Source: an uncultured Fibrobacterota bacterium (lineage in GTDB: Bacteria > Fibrobacterota > Chitinivibrionia > Chitinivibrionales > FEN-1185). From it: a DNA stretch of 64,000 nucleotides. The notes beneath the pieces are model-generated. The model searched no databases, had not been told where the DNA came from, and was given only the letters and a program-made list of their open reading frames with translations. The stretch lies in assembly GCA_963753345.1 (NCBI GenBank), contig CAVWBU010000036.1, positions 13,477 through 77,476 of the forward strand, given 5' to 3'. The position numbers were made by a program, and so were the translations under genes. Shown piece after piece: positions 39,870 to 51,214 of this stretch (the first letter of the stretch is position 1; every line of letters begins with the position of its first letter).

Positions 39870-40250
39870 ATGCTCGGCAGAATAGACAAGACAAAAGGTC
39901 AGATGGAGGCCGAAATAAGCGACGCCGTCACCCGGTTCGAAAAAGAATTCATGGGACGGGGCCCGCTGGAGACGAGGACCTACATCATAGACGACATGGT
40001 GATCGTCCGGCTCAAGGGCGTGCTTACCAGAGCGGAATACCGCCTTGTGAAGTCGGAGCGCAACTCCAAGGCCCGCGACCTTGTCAAGCAGGTGCGCATT
40101 GAGCTGCTCGAAAACGGCAGGCCGCTGCTCGAGGACATCATCAGGGACGTGCTCAAGCGCAAGGTCAAGAGCATGCACACCGATATCAGTACCATGAGCG
40201 GGGAGCGGATCATTATCTTCACCCTCGACAGGGCCGCTCTGGAAGACTGA
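39870..40250 (+). CDS. DUF2294 / MpsC-family protein
   Basis: TKGQMEAEIS, GRGP, GVLTRAE, MHTDIST..GERIIIFTL. Confidence 0.85.
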   Translation: MLGRIDKTKGQMEAEISDAVTRFEKEFMGRGPLETRTYIIDDMVIVRLKGVLTRAEYRLVKSERNSKARDLVKQVRIELLENGRPLLEDIIRDVLKRKVKSMHTDISTMSGERIIIFTLDRAALED

Positions 40251-40357
40251 TTCCGCATATCGCAGAGTTTTCTTTGTCGCGCCCGGCAACCGTGAGTGTG
40301 ACATTTTTCACCGGCGTGCAATTGCGTCTAAGTTTTTTCTTGCCGTTTTCCCGGGGC

Positions 40358-40366
40358 TGTTATAAT
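40358..40366 (+). promoter_or_regulatory. Extended -10 promoter for pckG leader
   Basis: TGTTATAAT. Confidence 0.6.
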
Positions 40367-40509
40367 TTTTTAGTGCCGTACGGAAGCCGCGTGCAGGCGA
40401 CCTGCTTGGTCGCGGGCGCTTGCGGATGCCGGAACGGACGCGGCCGGTTTGCAACCGGCCCGGTATCAAGCCCGGTTGACTCTTGCTCAAGGGGCAGTCC
40501 GGGGGTGAG

Positions 40510-40552
40510 GGCCAAGGAAATGCCGAAGGGTATTTCTCTGGTCTTTTTTTTT
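40510..40552 (+). terminator. Intrinsic terminator in pckG 5' leader (attenuator candidate)
   Basis: GGCCAAGGAAATGCC-GAAG-GGTATTTCTCTGGTC followed by T9, about 100 nt before pckG ATG. Confidence 0.8.
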
Positions 40553-40655
40553 ACCAGGATATCCGGGATTAAAACCGATTATCAGGATAACAGGGCAACA
40601 GACGGCATCACCGCAGGAATTGCGGTGGCTTCCTGACAAGAAAGAAAGGAATACC

Positions 40656-42464
40656 ATGGATGTGAAGGCGACCGCTTCCAACAAGAAACTCGAGCAGTGG
40701 GTAAAAGACATTGCCGGCATGTGTCAACCTGACGGCGTTCACTGGTGCGACGGCTCGCAGGAGGAATACGACGGCCTGTGCGCCCGGATGGTTTCGTCGG
40801 GCATGGCCACGCAGCTCAATCCGGCAAAGAAGCCGGGGTGTTTTCTGTTCCGCAGCCACCCGTCCGACGTGGCGCGCGTCGAAGACCGTACCTACGTGGC
40901 GCCGCATTCAAAGGATGATGCCGGTCCCACAAACAACTGGATGGATCCCGACGCGCTCAAGAAGAAAATGACCGGTTTGTACACAGGCTGCATGAAGGGC
41001 CGCACCATGTATGTCATTCCTTTTTCCATGGGGCCAATCGGCTCGCCGATATCGAAAATCGGCGTGGAAATCACGGATTCGCCCTACGTTGTGGTGAACA
41101 TGAGGATTATGACCCGCATGGGAAAAAGAGTGCTTGACGCGCTCGGCGCGGACGGAGAGTTCGTTCCATGCCTTCATTCGGTGGGAGCGCCGCTTGCCAA
41201 AGGACAAAAGGATTCCGCATGGCCCTGCGCGCCCGATATCGCCAACAAATACATAAGCCATTTTCCCGAGGAGCGGACCATCTGGTCGTACGGGTCGGGC
41301 TACGGCGGCAACGCGCTTCTGGGCAAGAAATGTTTCGCGCTGCGCATTGCGTCGGTGCAGGCGCGCGATGAAGGGTGGCTGGCCGAGCACATGCTTATTC
41401 TGGGCATAACCAATCCTCAGGGAAAAAAGAAGTACTTTGCGGCAGCTTTTCCAAGCGCCTGCGGCAAGACCAACCTTGCCATGATGATTCCCACGATTCC
41501 CGGCTGGAAAGTGGAAACCGTCGGCGACGACATCGCCTGGATGAAGTTCGGCCCGGACGGAAGGCTGCACGCCATCAACCCTGAATCGGGTTTTTTCGGC
41601 GTGGTGCCGGGAACCTCCATGGATTCGAACGCCAATGCCATGCTTTCCATTGAGAAGAACACGATTTATACCAATGTAGTGCTCACTCAGGACAAAGATG
41701 TCTGGTGGGAAGGAATAGGGTTCGATCCTCCTGCGGGAAAAAACATCGACTGGACCGGACAGGAATGGGACATGACCATGCGCCGGACAGGCGCGCATCC
41801 GAATGCGCGGTTCACGGCCCCGGCCGCGCAATGCCCGGTCATTGATCCGGCATGGGAGGATCCGCAGGGAGTTCCGATAAGCGCGATCCTTGTCGGCGGC
41901 CGCAGGCCGACAACAATACCGCTTGTGCATCAGGCTTTTTCGTGGAACCACGGCGTTTTTCTCGGATCGATTGTCGGCTCTGAAACCACCACGGCAAACA
42001 TCGGTGCGGTCGGCGTGGTCCGGCGCGACCCGTTTGCCATGCTTCCGTTCTGCGGATACCACATGGGCGACTATCTGGCGCATTGGATTGAAATCGGCAA
42101 GAAGACCGCGGCCGACAAACTGCCCAAGATTTTTTATGTGAACTGGTTCAGAAAAAGCGACGACGGCAAGTGGCTGTGGCCCGGCTACGGCGAAAACAGC
42201 CGGGTGCTCAAATGGATATTCGAGCGCACCGACGGCGCGACCAATGCCGTTGAATCTCCAATCGGCTACCTGCCCGCTCAAGGCGCCATAGACACCAGCG
42301 GTCTGCCGGTTGCGGCCTCGGACATGAAGGAGCTGTTCAGGGTGGACGCAGCGGAGTGGAAGAAGGAACTGGAGGGGATCAAGGACCATTACAGGAAATT
42401 CGGATCAAGGCTGCCTGCGGCTCTTTCCGGCGAGCTTGCGGCTCTTGAGAAGCGGCTGGGATGA
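40656..42464 (+). CDS. pckG: GTP-dependent PEP carboxykinase
   Basis: [44 protein letters not shown]. Confidence 0.97.
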
Positions 42465-42592
42465 CGGGCTACGATTGTTCACCAGGCTAGGGGTTTATTA
42501 TATATTAATGAACCAGGCCACAATCGCCCTTCCGGCTTGGCCAAAACCATAAAGAAACATCGCACTGCGACCACAACAGAAGGACATGAGCC

Positions 42593-43429
42593 GTGCCTTG
42601 GTTTATCAAGTCTAAGACTGCGGAAAAGCAGACCAAACCGGTCAAGGACGACATCTGGGTCAAGTGCGATTCCTGCAGCGCTCATGTTTTTAAGGAAGAC
42701 TGGTACAATTCCCTCAATGTCTGTCCCAAATGCGGATTTCACGGCAAGCTCACGGCGTATGAGCGCATCGGGCAGATCCTCGACATTGAGACGTTCAAAG
42801 AAATGTTCGCCTCAATAACTCCGTCCGACCCACTCTCCTTTGTGTATGCCAAGGGCAGTTACAAAGACAAGGTGAAAGAAACCCGCGATAAAACCGGGCT
42901 CAATGAATCGGTCGTGTGCGGCACGGGAGAAATCCATGAAATTCCCGTTTCGATAGCCGTAATGGATTTCCGGTTTTTCGGCGGCAGTCTGGGCAGCGGT
43001 ACCGGAGAAAAGATCCTGCTTGCCTCAAACTACGCATACGAGCACAAAATCCCGTACATCATTTTTTCCGCCTCAGGCGGCGCGCGCATGCACGAAGGGA
43101 TCCTTTCGCTCATGCAGATGGCCAAAACATGCGCCGGCATTGCACGGCTTCGCGAAAAGAAAATCCCCTACATTTCGGTCCTTACGGATCCGACGACGGG
43201 TGGCGTCGTTGCTAGTTATGCCATGGTAGGCGACATCAACATCGCGGAACCAGGTGCGCTGGTCGGCTTTGCCGGCAGGCGCGTGATAGAGCAAACCATA
43301 AAGCAGAAACTGCCCGAAAATTTTCAGACCTCAGAGTACTTTCTTGAGCATGGCTTCATCGACCTTATCGTTGAGCGCAAGAATCTTAAAGAAACCTTGA
43401 AAAACGTTCTCCTCTACTACACCCGGTAA
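42593..43429 (+). CDS. accD: Acetyl-CoA carboxylase carboxyltransferase beta (GTG start)
   Basis: WVKCDSC..CPKC zinc finger, SGGARMHEG, PTTGGV.AS, GFAGRRVIEQT. Confidence 0.96.
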   Translation: MPWFIKSKTAEKQTKPVKDDIWVKCDSCSAHVFKEDWYNSLNVCPKCGFHGKLTAYERIGQILDIETFKEMFASITPSDPLSFVYAKGSYKDKVKETRDKTGLNESVVCGTGEIHEIPVSIAVMDFRFFGGSLGSGTGEKILLASNYAYEHKIPYIIFSASGGARMHEGILSLMQMAKTCAGIARLREKKIPYISVLTDPTTGGVVASYAMVGDINIAEPGALVGFAGRRVIEQTIKQKLPENFQTSEYFLEHGFIDLIVERKNLKETLKNVLLYYTR

Positions 43430-43453
43430 AAGGTCCCAGCGGGGCAAATTCAT

Positions 43454-44404
43454 ATGAGCGATTATCTTGAATTTGAAAAGTCGATTGCCGAGATGGAGAA
43501 AATGATCGAGAAGCTCAAATCGATCTCTCCCGACGAGAATCATTACAGCGACGAAATCGCCGAGCTTGAGAAAAAATGCCTCCACCAGAAGCAGGAGCTA
43601 TACTCCAGCCTCACACCCTGGCAGACGGTCCAGATCGCAAGGCATCCAAAGCGTCCCGTGCTGCAGGATTACATTTCGCTTATTTTTTCAGATTTCATCG
43701 AGCTTCACGGGGACCGCTGTTTCGGCGACGACCAGGCGCTCATCGGCGGGTTCGCCACCATCGGCAAGCGCCGGGTGATGCTTGTCGGCCACAACAAGGG
43801 CAAGAACGTCGACGAAAACGTATTGCGCAATTTCGGCCAAGCAAAGCCCGAGGGATATCGCAAGGCGCTCCGTCTCATGAGGCTTGCCGAGAAGTTCAAT
43901 CTGCCCATACTTTGCTTTATCGACACGCAGGGCGCGTATCCAGGCGTCGACGCCGAAGAGCGCGGTCAGCCCGAAGCCATTGCCACCAACCTCACCGAAA
44001 TGGCGCGTCTCGAAGTGCCCATAATAGCCGTGGTCACCGGCGAAGGCGGCAGCGGCGGCGCGCTTGCCATCGGCGTGGGTGATTCGGTGCTCATGCTGTC
44101 GCATGCGGTGTATTCGGTGATTTCTCCCGAAGGGTGCGCATCCATTTTATGGCGCGATGCGTCATTTTCGCCCCAGGCCGCCGAGGCGATGAAGCCCACG
44201 GCCCAGTCGCTTCTGTCGCTGGGCGTGATAGACGAGATAATTCCTGAGCCCCTTGGAGGCGCCCACCGTAACCACGAACAGACCGGCCAGGAAATCAAGC
44301 GCGTGCTTCTCAAGCACCTCAAGAAACTGTGCGCCCAGTCTGCGTCGAGACTGGTGAGACACAGGTTCGAGAAATATTCAGCGATGGGATTGTTTGCAGA
44401 TTAG
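43454..44404 (+). CDS. accA: Acetyl-CoA carboxylase carboxyltransferase alpha
   Basis: ARHPKRP, ELHGDR, PEGYRKA, GEGGSGGA, YSVISPEGCASILW. Confidence 0.96.
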   Translation: MSDYLEFEKSIAEMEKMIEKLKSISPDENHYSDEIAELEKKCLHQKQELYSSLTPWQTVQIARHPKRPVLQDYISLIFSDFIELHGDRCFGDDQALIGGFATIGKRRVMLVGHNKGKNVDENVLRNFGQAKPEGYRKALRLMRLAEKFNLPILCFIDTQGAYPGVDAEERGQPEAIATNLTEMARLEVPIIAVVTGEGGSGGALAIGVGDSVLMLSHAVYSVISPEGCASILWRDASFSPQAAEAMKPTAQSLLSLGVIDEIIPEPLGGAHRNHEQTGQEIKRVLLKHLKKLCAQSASRLVRHRFEKYSAMGLFAD

Positions 44405-44431
44405 GTGCGCGTTTTTATGATCTGACCGCAA

Positions 44432-44545
44432 AATCACCACAGAGACACAGAGGCCACAGAGAAAACGAGAGCGAGAATCAAGAATGAAATTCACCAGGTG
44501 CACCGTTTTTTCAAGGCTTTCAACTTCCAACTCTCAACTTTGAAC
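44432..44545. repeat. Short tandem repeats between accA and carboxylase gene
   Basis: cacagag x3 (caccacagagacacagaggccacagag); tttcaac ttccaac tctcaac tttgaac at 44518-44545. Confidence 0.65.
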
Positions 44546-44603
44546 TCTTCTTCTCTCCACGGGGTGAAAGTATTTTAGTTTTTCAAACCAACAGGATACA
44601 ACC

Positions 44604-46595
44604 ATGGCCGCCATAAAAAAACTGACCATAGAAAACAAACTCCACAAGATCCCGCTGCGCATCACCGACACCACGCTGCGCGACGCGCACCAGTCGCTGT
44701 GGGCCACCCGCATGCGCACCGCGGATATCGAAAAAATCATCGACGTCATCGACAACGTCGGCTATTATTCGCTGGAATGCTGGGGCGGCGCGACGTTCGA
44801 CGTGTGCCTCCGTTTTCTCCGCGAGAACCCGTGGGAGCGTCTGAGGCTCATCAAGTCGAAGGCGAAGAAGACGCCGCTGCAGATGCTTCTGCGGGGGCAG
44901 AACCTTGTGGGATACCGCAACTACGCCGACGACGTCGTCGACCGGTTCGTGGCCCTTGCCTGCGAAAACGGCATGGATATCTTCCGCGTGTTCGACGCGC
45001 TTAACGACACGCGCAACATCGAAGCAGCAGTGAGGGCGGTCAAGAAACACGGCGGTCACGCGCAGGGGACGCTGTGCTACACCATAAGCCCGGTGCACAC
45101 CATCAAGAAATTCGTGTCGTACGCGCGCGAGCAGAAACAGCTCGGCGTGGATTCGATTTGCATCAAGGACATGGCGGGAATTCTTTCGCCCATCATGGCC
45201 GAGCGGCTCGTGAGCGCGCTTATCAAGGAGCTTGAAATACCCATCCAGCTCCATTGCCATGCCAGTTCCGGCATGGCGATCTCCAGCTACGTTGAAGGCG
45301 TCCGCGCCGGCGCGGGCGCGATCGACTGCGCCATTGCCGCAATGGCCGGAACCAGCAGCCAACCGCCTGTTGAGACCATGGCCGCCATTTTTTCGGAGAC
45401 CGACTATCACGCCGATCTCAACCGTGATGCCATGCTCCGCGTGCACCGGTACTTTGCCGACCTGTACGCTCAGCGCAACACCGACACGTCGCTCGTGTTC
45501 TGCATCGACCCCCAGATCCTCATCCACCAGATCCCGGGCGGCATGATCTCGAACTTCCGCTCCCAGCTCGCGAAGCAGAATGCGCTTGACAAACTGGAGG
45601 ACGCGCTCACGGAAGTCACGCGCGTGCGCGAGGACCTCGGATGGCCGCCGCTCGTGACGCCCACGAGCCAGATCGTGGGGACACAGGCGGTGATGAACGT
45701 GCTTTCCGGCGAGCGATACAAGATCGTCCCCAACGAGGTGAAGGACTATTTCCGCGGCCTGTACGGCCGCGCGCCGGCAAACGTGAACCCGGAACTGGCA
45801 AAGAAGATCCTCGGCGACGAGAAGCCCATCACCGTGCGGCCCGGCGACACCATCGCTCCCATGCTGCCCAAGGCGACCGAGGGAATAGATCCCAAGTACA
45901 TCAAGAACGAGGAAGACATTATTTCGTACTGCATTCTTCCCGAGCCGAGCCTTGAGTATTTCAAGTGGCGCGACATGCCGCCGGACAAGCGTCCCGAAAC
46001 GCCGGCGGACCTGGAGCTTAAGAAACTGAGCGCTGCCGCAGAAAAGAAAACCGCGGTGACAACGGAGAAGAAAGAGGAGGCTCCTTTCCTCGACCAGATA
46101 CTGCACCCCGAAGATTACCGCGGACTCGGCGAACTCCTCAACAGGGCCGGAGGGCTTCGGCTTGACGAATTGACAGTTAAGAAAGGCGATTTTTCCCTGT
46201 CGCTCAGATCGGACACCACGAGAATGCCTGTAATTCCCAAACCGGTTCCAACTGCCGCTCCCGGGGAGGCTTCTACAAAAAAAGAGGGCAAACCGGCAGA
46301 AGCCGGACCCGCGGCCGCAAAGGAAGAAAAGAGCGCGCCGATCCCAACGGTTGGACCGTCGATCAAGGCGCCTCTGGTCGGCGCGTTCTATTCCACGTCC
46401 GGACCGGGCAAGCCGAAGCTTGTGAACGTGGGAGACGTGGTGGAGGCCGGGACCAAGGTGTGCATCGTGGAGGCCATGAAGCTGTTCAACGAGATAGTTG
46501 CCCCTGTCAGGTGCAAGATCCTTCAGTTCCTCGTGGAGGACGGGACCACGGTGGAAAAGAACCAGCCGCTGATTGCCATAGAAGAATTAAAGTAA
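44604..46595 (+). CDS. Pyruvate/oxaloacetate carboxyltransferase (PycB/OadA/5S-like) fused to AccB-type biotin carboxyl carrier
   Basis: RDAHQSL, WGGATFD, IKDMAG, HCH, PPLVTPTSQIVG; C-terminal APLVGAFY..EAMKLFNEI. Confidence 0.9.
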   Translation: MAAIKKLTIENKLHKIPLRITDTTLRDAHQSLWATRMRTADIEKIIDVIDNVGYYSLECWGGATFDVCLRFLRENPWERLRLIKSKAKKTPLQMLLRGQNLVGYRNYADDVVDRFVALACENGMDIFRVFDALNDTRNIEAAVRAVKKHGGHAQGTLCYTISPVHTIKKFVSYAREQKQLGVDSICIKDMAGILSPIMAERLVSALIKELEIPIQLHCHASSGMAISSYVEGVRAGAGAIDCAIAAMAGTSSQPPVETMAAIFSETDYHADLNRDAMLRVHRYFADLYAQRNTDTSLVFCIDPQILIHQIPGGMISNFRSQLAKQNALDKLEDALTEVTRVREDLGWPPLVTPTSQIVGTQAVMNVLSGERYKIVPNEVKDYFRGLYGRAPANVNPELAKKILGDEKPITVRPGDTIAPMLPKATEGIDPKYIKNEEDIISYCILPEPSLEYFKWRDMPPDKRPETPADLELKKLSAAAEKKTAVTTEKKEEAPFLDQILHPEDYRGLGELLNRAGGLRLDELTVKKGDFSLSLRSDTTRMPVIPKPVPTAAPGEASTKKEGKPAEAGPAAAKEEKSAPIPTVGPSIKAPLVGAFYSTSGPGKPKLVNVGDVVEAGTKVCIVEAMKLFNEIVAPVRCKILQFLVEDGTTVEKNQPLIAIEELK

Positions 46596-46610
46596 GACTA
46601 CGAAAAAGAT

Positions 46611-47105
46611 GGGCGTTCCCCCGGCTGTGCAGAGGCGTAGCGCGCTACGCCTCTGCACAGCCGGGGTCGGTCTCCCTACGGGCTCGGCTATTCGCCTCGT
46701 TGCCGGACCGCCCCTAGTCGCCTTCGGCGAGGGGTCGGCCGGCAATGCGCTCTGGCGCACCCTCCGGTCCCCCTAACGCGGCGGCAACGGAATTCATTTC
46801 AGTCAATTACTTCTTCTTGCGCCAATTGGTATCCACCTAGTCAACGTTATTTCTTCTCAACTCCTCAACTTCTCAACCTCTCAACTAATCTTCTTGGTGC
46901 CCCCGCGACCAAGGTTTCTTTCTTGCAAATTTACTCTCTAGGGGGCTACCCAAGAGAGGAAAGCGCCCGCCCAACAGGAAGGGCGGAAAGCGCTGCCGAG
47001 GACCGCGAAGAGGGCCGAGGCCGGGGGAGACGACCCTTGGAAGTATGCCCCTTCGGGCATCCCTGAAGAGGGACCCGACGGGGTATACCTCTCCCCCGAC
47101 AAATC
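46611..47105 (-). repeat. Composite structured intergenic element (modules A + 8-mer array + B), inverted copy
   Basis: Reverse complement aligns with 59961-60381 and 62735-63152; includes perfect 48-bp palindrome 46619-46666. Confidence 0.85.
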
Positions 47106-47290
47106 TTTTGATGTAATAGCAACCCTGCCTGCCGGAATTGTTGATTTTTCGCCCCCGACAGAGTAATTTTTAAGCGTTTTAGGGGGGTAATCAAATCCTC
47201 GATTTGTGGGACGGCGCAACCAGACGTAAATGATTGCGGCGGTATGTGTTGACTACTGCGACATCACATGAGTCGGAAGCCTGGAAAACC

Positions 47291-49262
47291 ATGATATCGT
47301 CATCAATAAAAACTCGGGTGGGGCTGCGCCGGGGTGTCGGCAAGAATGCAGAGCCTTCAGTCACCCAACGAACTTGTACCGCTCTGGCTTTTTTCCTTCT
47401 CGCTGCGGCGCTGTTTGCCGGCAGCAGTGCGCAATCTCCCGACGAGCCCATCATAACTCCTTTTGGCCAGACGGGGCTCAAGTACACCGAAAGCGCGAAA
47501 ACGCTCGGCGCCGGGAGGCTGGTTTTTTCGGCGTTCGGCGATATGAGCCTTGACGCTTCGGAAATAGATTATGTCAATATCAACAACCTCAGCGTCGACC
47601 GAGGACTAACGCCCAAAAGCAACCAGTACTCCCTTATGCCCGCGTTGGGGTTGGGCATTACCCGCATCCTGGATTTTTCCGCCGCCCTTCCATTGAACAT
47701 CGACTGGACGTCACGGTACGCGGATACAATTTTCGGTCATGTGGAAGGTTACGGAGGTCTGCAGGGCGGCATCGGCGATCTGGAAATGAAGCTCAAACTG
47801 CAGGTGCCTCCGCGCAACGGCCCGCGTGTTGTCGATATGGCGCTGCTGGCGGGAATGAGCGTGCCCACGGGCAGCAAGACACAGGGATTTTTTCCCCGCC
47901 ACACTTACTACCTTCTTAAGGATTCCTTGTTGACGAACACGCCCAGCGGCGACACCGCGCAGGCCATTTCGGAATATTATTCGTCGGGCGCCGTGGAAAC
48001 CGAAGGGAAAATCATCCTTACCTTCAACTGCTGGGAACACGGCGCCGTGATTCCGCTCCAATTGCATCTCAATCTCGGGACCCGGCTCATTTTGGCGCGC
48101 GGATTCGATGAAGTCATCCTTTTTGATGCCGCAGCCGAATACAGGCCCGCGCCGTGGTTTTCACTGTATGCGGAATTGAGCGCGGAACCGAGGCTGGGCA
48201 GCATCACAAACGGATTCAAAATCGGCGAACGACCCGCTCAGGATTTCTCCGGGTTTCACCATGCACCTCCCGGAAGGCATGTTTATCTCGTTGGGCGGCG
48301 ACTGGGGACTTTCCTCGCACGATCCCATCACCTACGAAAAGGACGGCTCCTTCACCGAGGCGCGGCTGCAGCCCGATTGGATGGTGAGCGTGGCGGTGGG
48401 ATGGACCGGGTTCCTTTACAAGGTTGAACCCGGGAAGAAAGTGGTAAAGAGCGGCGACAGCGACAACGACGGAATCCCGGATTCAATTGACAAATGCCCC
48501 ATGGTTCCCGAGGACTGGGACGGGTTTGAAGACCAGGACGGGTGTCCGGATTACGACAACGACAAGGACGGCATCGCCGACTCCGTCGACGAGTGCCCCG
48601 ACGATCCCGAGGATTACGACGGGTTCAAGGACAAGGACGGATGTCCGGACCCGGACAACGATAGGGACGGCATCTGCGATCCTTGGGTCGCCGACCAGCA
48701 CCGCGAGGACCAGTATGCAAAGATCTGCACGGGCGTTGACAAATGCCCCAACCTGCCTGAGGATTTCGACGGGTTTGAAGACCAGGACGGTTGCCCGGAC
48801 TACGACAACGACCTTGACGGCGTTCCCGACAGCCTCGACAGGTGCCCCAACGAACCCGGCCCTGCCGACAACCAGGGATGCCCCAAGCCAGTGGAGGCTC
48901 CGAAGGTAAAAGAGATCAAACACGGCAGGCTTATTCTCAAAGGCGTCGAATTCAAGGGAACCTCCGCCGATCTTACGGCAGAGTCCTTTCAGAAACTCGA
49001 CGACGTTTTCGAATCGCTCAAAGCGTATCCGGGAACAAAGATTGAGATTTGCGGTTACACCGACAACACCGGCAACCCGGCCGCCAACAAAAAGATTTCG
49101 CTGCGCCGCGCCGAAACCGTCCGGGCCTACCTTATTCTGCGCGGGATAGATTCCTCCCGCATCACCGCCGTAGGCAAGGGCCCGGAGGATCCGATCACCA
49201 ACAATACGACCCCCGAGGGCCGCGCGTTCAACCGTCGTATCGAAATGAAGCGCATCGACTGA
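47291..49262 (+). CDS. OmpA-family protein: beta-barrel, TSP3 repeats, OmpA domain (+1 frameshift near 48228; start uncertain)
   Basis: Two ORFs join to match the downstream paralog (DPLRISPG vs DPLSLTPG); DxDxDG repeats; GYTDN, RRAETV, NRRIE. Confidence 0.85.
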
Positions 49263-49312
49263 CGCAGGGATTCGGTGCGGCCGCGATCGTTAGTACAACA
49301 GGGAACAATGCG

Positions 49313-51214
49313 ATGAACCTGGCCGGGAGAATCCGTTTGTGTTTCGTGTTGTGGTGGTGCGCCTGCGCCGCGTCGCACGCGACCGACAACACCGACGGCC
49401 TGGACGGCGTGGTGCGCGTCCAGTCGGCAAAGACCCTCGGCCGCGCGAAAATGAACGTGGGGCTGGGCGTGGAGTTCCAGCAGTCCTCCGATTATGTAAA
49501 GGGCCCCACCTGGGATATCACGCGTATTGAGCCCCACGACACGACATTGACAAACGTGATACAGGACCCGGCCAAGATCATTTCCGGCAATTTCTTCCTG
49601 TCCATGGGACTGCTTGATTTCTGGGACCTTGCCGCGTCCCTGCCGCTGTACTACGACTGGAGCGGGTTCGGGCCGTACGACGCCGGGCTCGGCGACGTCG
49701 AGGTGATCTCCAAGTTCATGATGCCGCCGGTCTCGTTCAACAAGCTGTTCTACGAGGCTGTTATCATTGCGGCGACTCTCCCCACCGGCATGAAAGGCAA
49801 CGGCCTCTTTCCGCGCCATCTGCACTTTGCCGCCGACGCCGACACCAATCCTGCCAAGGATTTCTACACGGTCGGCTACGCCACCGTGAAACCGATGCTG
49901 GCGCTCACTCTCGATCTTGGAAAGCGGCACGTGCCGCTGCAGATCCACGCCAATCTCGGCGGCGTTTTCGCGGAAGTCAACACGGAGAATACGGTCGTGG
50001 GCGGGCTGGCCGTTGAATACACGCCGGCCGAATTCGTCACGCTTTTTGCCGAGATCACTGCGGAATCCCGCTGGAGCAACATTTCGTCCGGGTACGACAT
50101 CCGGAAGGACCCGCTGTCGCTCACTCCCGGGATAAGGATCAGCGCGCCCAACGGACTTTACTTCTTTTTGACCGGGGATTTCAGCCTTTCGTCGAAGGAC
50201 GACCGGTACCGGTACAACTGGGACAAAAAGGGATACAACTATTCCACCGGGATCCAGCCGGACTTCGGCGTGCAGTTCACGTTCGGATGGTCCGGGTTCG
50301 TGACAACGCAGGACCGGGACCACGACGGCGTTCCCGACAACGTGGACCGCTGTCCCGACGATTCCGGGCCGGCGGCGAACAACGGCTGTCCCGACCCGGA
50401 CAACGACAAGGACGGCGTCTGCGATCCGTGGGTCTCCCAGAAACACCAGGAAAGCAAGTACGCCGACGTGTGCAAAGGCATTGACAAATGTCCAACACAG
50501 CCCGAAGACATGGACGGGTTTCAGGACGAGGACGGCTGTCCCGACTTCGACAACGACGGCGACGGTAACCCCGATCTCAAGGACCAGTGCCCGAACGAAC
50601 CCGAGGACTTTGACGGGTTTCAGGACGAGGACGGCTGCCCCGACCGCGACAACGACCACGACGGTATCCCCGATATTGTTGACAAATGCCCCAACGAGCC
50701 GGAAGACATCGACGGCTTCGAGGACGAGGACGGCTGTCCCGATTACGACAACGACCACGACGGCATTCCCGACCTCATGGACAAGTGCCCCAATGTTGCG
50801 GGCCCGGCCTCAAACAACGGCTGCCCCGATACCACGCCTCCTCCCAAGCCGCCAAGGAAGGAACCGGATTTTCCGAAACAGCAAGTACTGCGCGGCGTCA
50901 CCTTCCAGGGAAGTACGGCCGAGCTCACGTTCGAATCCCTGCAATGGCTCGACGCCGTTGCCAGGACCATGAAGGAGTTTCCTGAGATCGAGATTGAAGT
51001 GCACTGCTATACCGACGGCTTGGGAAAATACGCGACGGTTATGCAGATCACCCAGATGCGCGCGGAGGCGGTGCGGCAGTACATCATCAATCAGGGCATA
51101 GACCCCGGCCGCGTGCGGGCCGTGGGATACGGGTCGGCAAGCCCCATTGCCGACAACAGGACCGCAGCGGGAAGGGCGCTCAACCGCAGAGTGGAAATCG
51201 TTCGCACCAGGTAA
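49313..51214 (+). CDS. OmpA-family protein with TSP3 repeats (tandem paralog)
   Basis: Signal peptide, SAKTLG, repeated DxDxDG.PD..DKCP, GRALNRRVEI. Confidence 0.9.
   Translation: MNLAGRIRLCFVLWWCACAASHATDNTDGLDGVVRVQSAKTLGRAKMNVGLGVEFQQSSDYVKGPTWDITRIEPHDTTLTNVIQDPAKIISGNFFLSMGLLDFWDLAASLPLYYDWSGFGPYDAGLGDVEVISKFMMPPVSFNKLFYEAVIIAATLPTGMKGNGLFPRHLHFAADADTNPAKDFYTVGYATVKPMLALTLDLGKRHVPLQIHANLGGVFAEVNTENTVVGGLAVEYTPAEFVTLFAEITAESRWSNISSGYDIRKDPLSLTPGIRISAPNGLYFFLTGDFSLSSKDDRYRYNWDKKGYNYSTGIQPDFGVQFTFGWSGFVTTQDRDHDGVPDNVDRCPDDSGPAANNGCPDPDNDKDGVCDPWVSQKHQESKYADVCKGIDKCPTQPEDMDGFQDEDGCPDFDNDGDGNPDLKDQCPNEPEDFDGFQDEDGCPDRDNDHDGIPDIVDKCPNEPEDIDGFEDEDGCPDYDNDHDGIPDLMDKCPNVAGPASNNGCPDTTPPPKPPRKEPDFPKQQVLRGVTFQGSTAELTFESLQWLDAVARTMKEFPEIEIEVHCYTDGLGKYATVMQITQMRAEAVRQYIINQGIDPGRVRAVGYGSASPIADNRTAAGRALNRRVEIVRTR

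Follow-up and report, generated by a model that had tools for sequence, protein, structure and literature searches.

The gene at 44604..46595 on the forward (+) strand of the window, the whole 64,000-nucleotide stretch of Chitinivibrionales (Fibrobacterota) DNA analysed here, encodes a protein of 663 amino acids (aa) in which a carboxyltransferase of the 5S/PycB/OadA type is followed by a complete AccB, the biotin carrier of heteromeric acetyl-CoA carboxylase (ACC), as judged from the open reading frame (ORF) list, Pfam and hidden Markov model (HMM) scores. Three genes precede this fusion on the same strand: a GTP-dependent phosphoenolpyruvate (PEP) carboxykinase (GTP-PEPCK; 40620..42464; PEPCK_N 345 bits, PEPCK_GTP 563 bits); accD, for the carboxyltransferase beta subunit with its N-terminal Zn ribbon (42593..43429; TIGR00515 372.9 bits, cut-off 317.45; Zn_ribbon_ACC and Carboxyl_trans domains); and accA, for the carboxyltransferase alpha subunit (43454..44404; PRK05724 477 bits, cut-off 357; TIGR00513 444.9 bits, cut-off 319.3).

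The pyruvate/oxaloacetate carboxyltransferase part of the fusion (44658..46067, + strand), delimited by Pfam and by PDB relatives, comprises a TIM barrel (HMGL-like, residues 19-281) and a PYC_OADA domain (residues 305-488), and a Biotin_lipoyl domain follows at residues 587-659. Its solved relatives are, in order of score, OadA (2nx9, 481 bits), PycB (5ks8_C, 440 bits) and the transcarboxylase 5S subunit (1rqb, 410 bits). The motifs RITDTT (residues 19-24), IKDMAG (187-192) and HCHASS (217-222) are conserved, and among the 106 homologues compared D22, H217 and H219 vary little or not at all and E623, A624, M625 and K626 are invariant; the carboxyltransferase part is intact. In an AlphaFold2 model of the fusion (mean predicted local distance difference test, pLDDT, 84; predicted template modelling score 0.78), the carboxyltransferase and biotinyl domains are confident, a helix at 502-515 is of moderate confidence, the strands of the N-terminal segment of the carrier are of low confidence, and the stretch 537-578 is disordered (pLDDT <50).

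The best whole-protein model in NCBIfam is PRK09282, 'pyruvate carboxylase subunit B' (755 bits); on TIGR01108 (OadA) the fusion scores 676 bits where the cut-off is 756.5, and it stays below the equivalog cut-offs of PRK14041 and PRK14042 (PycB). With such scores, and with the partners OadB and PycA not found in the genome, the fusion lies outside the OadA, PycB and 5S equivalogs. Its homologues carry varying names, among them 'oxaloacetate decarboxylase alpha', 'pyruvate carboxylase subunit B' and 'AccB', with JGI mostly using 'oxaloacetate decarboxylase alpha subunit'. The labels of near-identical proteins place the organism in the Chitinivibrionales, phylum Fibrobacterota. A protein of Chitinivibrio alkaliphilus (as named by NCBI; P0093) is the same fusion, letter-identical to the gene of the related genome G026, in which no biotin carboxylase (BC) was found. 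Two homologues are labelled 'Bacteroidales bacterium' by NCBI, a label that is unconfirmed.

The AccB-type tail

The tail of the fusion, residues 500-663, corresponds with its stop codon to 46101..46595 and falls into three parts, all on the + strand. The AccB-type N-terminal segment (46104..46214, residues 501-537), located with TIGR00531, an N-terminal HMM and the model, consists of a helix and then the LDELTVKKGDFSLSLR hairpin region (520-535). A flexible linker follows (46215..46358, residues 538-585), recognised from composition, pLDDT and pairwise identity, in which Pro and Ala make up 19 of the 48 residues. The AccB-type biotinyl domain (46359..46592, residues 586-663), assigned from Pfam, the alignment to E. 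coli biotin carboxyl carrier protein (BCCP), as well as motif spacing, has its thumb at about residues 597-605 and the biotinyl-lysine K626 (codon 46479..46481) within EAMK. The sequence strings quoted in an initial annotation of this DNA are all present in the fusion; located in the tail are LHPEDY (500-505), PLVGAFY (590-596), STSGPGKPK (597-605) and EAMKLF (623-628).

That annotation had taken the tail for a whole AccB and not the tail of a PycB or OadA, and five independent checks agree with it. The 164-aa tail matches TIGR00531 (BCCP) at 108 bits over profile positions 6-155 of 156 (residues 508-660), ahead of 57.5 bits for the PycB tail (PRK09282) and 26.4 bits for oadA. Among solved structures it is best matched by full-length E. 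coli BCCP (4hr7_B), with query residues 10-161 aligned to chain residues 27-176 and no gap in the thumb; the PycB chain 5ks8_C matches at only 23.9 bits. When 1.84 billion representative proteins were searched with the tail, the best matches after copies and fragments of the fusion were proteins of 150-180 aa aligned end to end, and TIGR00531 was the best family for all 12 stand-alone look-alikes tested, 8 of them above its cut-off and 4 below. Two other proteins from this search, P0127 (353 aa) and P0165 (546 aa), contain two to four tandem AccB-type biotinyl domains and score 235 and 218 bits, respectively, on TIGR00531, over several stretches.

PxxG and AMK stand 34 residues apart in each of the 25 fusions and 31 stand-alone AccB counted, compared with 27 in all seven conventional carriers (PycB/OadA/pyruvate carboxylase/1.3S-like, from related genomes), which read EAMKME; this count leaves out one AccB row and one conventional row that do not fit the pattern. 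Furthermore, an HMM was built from 31 stand-alone AccB stripped of their biotinyl domains; on it, the inter-domain region of the fusion alone scores 17.7 bits, a value reached by none of 2000 composition-preserving shuffles (maximum 15.4). Of the fusions, 10 of 28 from genomes and 50 of 106 from databases score above the best shuffle, and five conventional proteins score ≤4.2 on the same HMM. Pairwise identity is 0.40 in the AccB N-terminal segment against 0.14-0.21 in the flanking linkers (0.14 in the linker 538-585). A maximum-likelihood tree of 65 carrier domains separates 8 conventional rows from 57 AccB and fusion rows with support of 100/99, so that clustering with PycB/OadA carriers did not occur; the fusions are nested among AccB, in an inner order left unsettled by the 84 columns available. 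Together, these observations show the tail to be a complete AccB, with N-terminal segment, Pro/Ala linker, thumb and EAMK. Unlike AccB as a free small subunit working with AccC, the carrier sits behind a 500-residue carboxyltransferase, and AccC was not found in the genome.

One detail of the initial annotation needs correction. The string EAMKLFNEI does not set the fusion apart but is widespread among AccB: a contig search with the back-translated motif gave at least 120 loci, and of the 120 listed, 119 encode stand-alone AccB of the ordinary kind, from Bacteroidota, Bacillota and other groups, the fusion occurring only at L102 ('MAG: bacterium').

Biotin carboxylase and the fusion across the order

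The window's assembly (genome G000; 4.5 Mb, 55 contigs, 94.3% complete) holds one PYC_OADA gene and one accD/accA pair, and its sole AccB-type match is the fusion itself. Both birA and fabD (329.9 bits, above cut-off) are present, and OadB (PF03977) was not found. Three independent searches of this genome for BC were empty: the best TIGR00514 matches were of 66.6 bits, to carB-like ORFs of 1095 aa; Biotin_carb_C gave no match, where 13 of 14 control genomes were positive; and tblastn with three AccC from relatives returned only ATP-grasp hits of 23-32% identity. The carB-like ORF, of the type of the large chain of carbamoyl-phosphate synthase, is present at two places that score identically (C15:91566-94166 and C55:2666-5266), either as a true duplicate or as a region assembled twice. 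The lone control genome negative for Biotin_carb_C is that of Thermotoga maritima, which does match BCCP, PYC_OADA, OAD_beta and Carboxyl_trans and may be another bacterium that lacks BC.

For the order Chitinivibrionales we counted the 67 genomes at least 85% complete, and for the phylum 201 genomes (the phylum tallies including one unpublished genome, G184, on which no claim depends). The BC domain is detected in 90 of the 201 phylum genomes and 17 of the 67 order genomes, leaving 50 in which it was not found; among 31 relatives it is detected in 10, and among the eight genomes of the window's own family, several of them 96-99% complete, in none. Its presence follows families (f3 3/3, f4 5/6, f1 0/5, f9 0/7), whereas assembly gaps would be expected to strike at random. 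The lack of a detectable BC is thus lineage-wide and no assembly accident.

The fusion itself is full length in all 31 relatives, counting genome G001, where it is split over two contigs, and G008, where it has an in-frame TAA, and in none of the 31 does anything but the fusion tail match the N-terminal part of the BCCP profile. An AccB-type match is present in 65 of the 67 order genomes, in a frame of 587-713 aa in all but the interrupted G008. In that BC-positive genome (L167, G008:C3:18900-21100), the TAA lies within the PYC_OADA region and the AccB part stands in a 267-aa frame; the orthologue there may be a pseudogene or naturally split, or the stop may stem from a sequencing error. Unique among the order genomes, G119 has a free AccB of 186 aa (140.9 bits; L025, G119:C56:640-1158) besides the fusion, on a 3.4-kb contig of a genome with 6% contamination.

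Outside the order, families f12-f19 have a free accB adjoining accC. The fusion as a trait of the whole phylum was rejected, given these ordinary accB-accC pairs and three genomes of family f10 that have only a 24-25% identical relative of 531-535 aa. In family f10 (89 genomes), no BC was detected in 58 of 89 and no AccB-type carrier in 82 of 89; the f10 genomes sampled encode small EAMKME carriers that lack the thumb, in frames 137-186 aa long (for example L037, G071:C1:84300-85200, and L038, G073:C1:1758900-1759700).

These counts bear on whether the fusion could be an ordinary beta subunit of a two-subunit pyruvate carboxylase and/or the carrier of an ATP-dependent ACC, its BC having escaped assembly or given way to an enzyme not recognised as such. 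This would agree with PRK09282 being the best whole-protein model and with the incompleteness of draft assemblies, from which genes can be missing. Furthermore, BC does exist in 17 of the 67 order genomes; in the seven BC-positive relatives inspected it is an orphan gene that scores as accC over the cut-off (7/7) and has neither carrier nor transferase alongside, with no other AccB available as its partner. The family-wise distribution, the lack of BC in 50 of 67 order genomes and in 8 of 8 of the family, and the three empty searches of G000 all argue against this explanation, and we consider it unlikely.

The initial annotation had gone on to describe the fusion as wired into ACC. The tie to the acetyl-CoA carboxyltransferase stands, with accA immediately preceding the fusion in 30 of 31 order genomes (the exception being G021) and the fusion tail as the sole full-length AccB-type carrier in 31 of 31; the ATP-dependent ACC does not, since no BC was found in the genome or the family. 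An ACC of that kind may operate in relatives that have retained an orphan accC (17 of 67), where the fused carrier could serve ACC, pyruvate carboxylase and transcarboxylase.

The conserved neighbourhood also speaks to a second alternative, in which the fusion is the alpha subunit of an oxaloacetate decarboxylase, Na+-pumping or soluble, that lies beside accD-accA incidentally. Vibrio OadA (2nx9) is indeed the closest solved carboxyltransferase, most homologues bear this name at JGI, and a Na+-pumping oxaloacetate decarboxylase has been proposed for Chitinispirillum and Chitinivibrio in the relevant portion of the Chitinispirillum genome paper (PMC4814513); that portion, which discusses the membrane oxaloacetate decarboxylase CHISP_0486-0488, leaves the fusion unmentioned (PMC4814513). 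The failure to find OadB in G000 leaves a Na+-pumping decarboxylase without support, however, and the TIGR01108 score is below the cut-off. Relatives with a conventional OadA-like gene have it as a separate paralogue, 26-28% identical and with a thumb-less EAMKME carrier, and a thumb-bearing AccB-type carrier occurs in none of the seven conventional carriers examined. With accA adjacent in 30 of 31 genomes, which argues against incidental placement, a decarboxylase role seems very improbable.

The full order PEPCK-accD-accA-fusion is found in 10 of the 31 relatives, from four families, out of 16 in which a GTP-PEPCK match is present. In two families (G029:C1:22566-24311 and G014:C97:9362-11116), a divergent protein of the GTP-PEPCK family stands at the PEPCK position upstream of accD-accA-fusion; the two are 32-33% identical to the window PEPCK, in frames of 709-713 aa, with PF00821 at 345-356 bits.

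A proposed oxaloacetate:acetyl-CoA transcarboxylase

From this gene content we infer that AccA/AccD and the fusion of a 5S-type carboxyltransferase with AccB probably constitute an ATP-independent oxaloacetate:acetyl-CoA transcarboxylase. One cluster encodes a 5S-type carboxyltransferase, AccA/AccD and a carrier, and no BC was found. With two carboxyltransferases, one carrier and no biotin-carboxylating enzyme found, transcarboxylation would be the only closed catalytic cycle; the classical ACC reaction could not run where neither genome nor family yields a BC, and a transcarboxylase fits the domain set better. The AccB type of the carrier, with its thumb, would be explained by AccA/AccD being an ordinary ACC carboxyltransferase.

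In the proposed mechanism, the N-terminal carboxyltransferase would move the carboxyl group from oxaloacetate to the biotin at K626, freeing pyruvate, and the carrier would then swing to AccA/AccD, presumably within a physical complex, where acetyl-CoA would be carboxylated to malonyl-CoA. The Pro/Ala arm of about 48 residues would let the carrier reach both active sites. The net reaction, oxaloacetate + acetyl-CoA = pyruvate + malonyl-CoA, would require neither ATP nor BC. The neighbouring GTP-PEPCK would supply oxaloacetate from PEP and CO2, conserving GTP, and the malonyl-CoA would feed fatty-acid synthesis. Relative to pyruvate kinase plus ACC, this route would save one ATP per malonyl-CoA. 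The presence of birA means that the carrier can be loaded, and that of fabD that malonyl-CoA is needed. A precedent for the chemistry exists: the part of an energy-conservation review that treats the Propionibacterium transcarboxylase lists carboxyl transfer from oxaloacetate to acetyl-CoA as a side activity of that enzyme (PMC8085960, citing Swick and Wood 1960).

The same complex could in principle run in reverse, from malonyl-CoA and pyruvate to acetyl-CoA and oxaloacetate, for anaplerosis or malonate use. The methylmalonyl reaction of the Propionibacterium transcarboxylase lies near equilibrium according to the same part of the review, and by analogy the reaction proposed here should be near equilibrium and reversible as well (PMC8085960). 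The direction toward malonyl-CoA is preferred because malonyl-CoA is consumed by fabD and the tools used revealed no other source for it, BC being undetected; the adjoining PEPCK, moreover, would already yield oxaloacetate. We regard the reverse direction as very improbable. Two further roles were tried and rejected: one like that of 2-oxoglutarate carboxylase, a family that needs a BC subunit, and a malonate decarboxylase of the Malonomonas type, which needs an OadB-like membrane subunit (OadB was not found in G000).

Several observations weigh against a transcarboxylase, a reading drawn from gene content. The assembly of G000 is a draft in 55 contigs, and drafts cannot prove absence. The carboxyltransferase part is under the cut-off of every equivalog model, including that of the 5S subunit (NF008984, 502.5 versus 827), and on TIGR00531 the fusion scores 104-108 bits, just below the curated cut-off of 115.2, which is exceeded by the orthologous fusions in 11 of 31 genomes of the order. 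PEPCK adjoins the cluster in just 10 of 31 genomes. In the BC-negative genomes G011, G012, G015, G019, G020 and G025, neither GTP-PEPCK, ATP-PEPCK nor PEP carboxylase was found with the models used, and the same holds for G001 (73% complete, BC-negative), so that no candidate source of oxaloacetate was found there; among the 31 relatives as a whole, ATP-PEPCK is found in none and PEP carboxylase in three (G021, G026 and G030). Within the window, accA and the fusion are separated by 199 nt with a weak promoter-like site at 44393..44421, which makes their co-transcription putative.

The N-terminal segment of the carrier raises a further difficulty. It is as conserved in fusions from genomes without BC (identity 0.37-0.40, n=13-19) as in those with it (0.43, n=9), so that docking to BC cannot be its sole role, and the transcarboxylase model leaves this equal conservation unaccounted for. 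Self-association could explain why the segment is retained, by analogy with E. coli, where the part of a preprint on ACC filaments that concerns AccB models its N-terminal segment as a self-associating alpha/beta/beta unit (PMC11160672). A complex prediction with four copies of residues 497-542 scored 0.22, against a mark of 0.42.

Around the cluster, a promoter and terminator scan gave 3 promoter-like sites where 2.6 are expected, an Rfam scan of 40000-48000 gave no match, and a look-up of RNA sequencing runs for 42400-46700 listed none. The 640 nt 3' of the fusion (46596..47233) contain no + strand ORF of at least 80 aa; two short - strand ORFs overlap the region, in which there was neither an Rfam match nor a + strand terminator-like site. 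Further downstream, a porin-like protein that contains thrombospondin-type-3 repeats and whose C-terminus is of the OmpA type seems split over two overlapping frames (47234..49262). The first ORF (47234..48427) aligns to residues 97-376, and the second (48261..49262) to residues 364-719, of an intact 721-aa paralogue next door (49049..51214), and the alignments point to a frameshift, real or a sequencing error, near 48261-48427.

Relation to known biotin-dependent systems

ACC with its BC, an antibiotic target, is considered to carry out the first step in bacterial fatty-acid synthesis, one that is committed, essential and costs ATP. For the order Chitinivibrionales, the evidence leans, on balance, toward a lineage that mostly gave up BC and starts fatty-acid synthesis with a dedicated transcarboxylase, PEPCK fixing the CO2 and malonyl-CoA being made ATP-free. 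If so, nature could dispense with the ATP-dependent ACC reaction, which is commonly taken to be universal in bacterial type II fatty-acid synthesis, and a transcarboxylase that stands in for the ATP-dependent half-reaction, with oxaloacetate as carboxyl donor, would have a physiological role new to such enzymes, showing how strict fermenters lower the ATP cost of lipid synthesis. In open-access literature and bioRxiv we found no paper on an oxaloacetate:acetyl-CoA or malonyl-CoA:pyruvate transcarboxylase as a named enzyme, nor on bacteria that lack BC and keep AccA/AccD. The three genes would also offer a module for ATP-neutral malonyl-CoA supply in metabolic engineering, a use to which transcarboxylation had not yet been put according to the part of the energy-conservation review that discusses it (PMC8085960). 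Proteins now named 'oxaloacetate decarboxylase alpha', 'pyruvate carboxylase subunit B' or 'AccB' would have their annotation corrected, and the idea is directly testable in cultured Chitinivibrio alkaliphilus, which carries the same fusion (P0093).

The proposed system shares parts with each of four known ones. The closest solved relative of its carboxyltransferase domain is Vibrio OadA, but it differs from the Na+-translocating complex in having no OadB that we could find, another type of carrier and a score below the equivalog cut-off. It resembles the two-subunit pyruvate carboxylase (PycA + PycB; Methylobacillus 5ks8) in placing a carboxyltransferase and then a carrier on one chain, but PycA was not found in G000 and the carrier is of the AccB type, the 5ks8 tail being a match of only 23.9 bits. 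With heteromeric ACC of the E. coli type (AccA, AccB, AccC, AccD) it has in common AccA and AccD at equivalog level and a carrier with every AccB feature examined; unlike there, AccC was not found, AccB is fused behind a second, unrelated carboxyltransferase, and the donor would be oxaloacetate instead of bicarbonate plus ATP.

In its way of working the proposed system parallels the methylmalonyl-CoA:pyruvate transcarboxylase of Propionibacterium (12S + 5S + 1.3S; EC 2.1.3.1), likewise a biotin enzyme without BC that combines a 5S-type carboxyltransferase (1rqb, 410 bits) with a CoA-ester carboxyltransferase. The 5S cut-off of NF008984 is not reached by the fusion, the two-gene AccA/AccD of ACC stands here in place of the 12S subunit, and a complete AccB with its thumb is fused to the 5S-type subunit where Propionibacterium has a free 1.3S. 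The proposed substrate pair is acetyl-CoA/malonyl-CoA, so that the enzyme would serve biosynthesis instead of fermentation.

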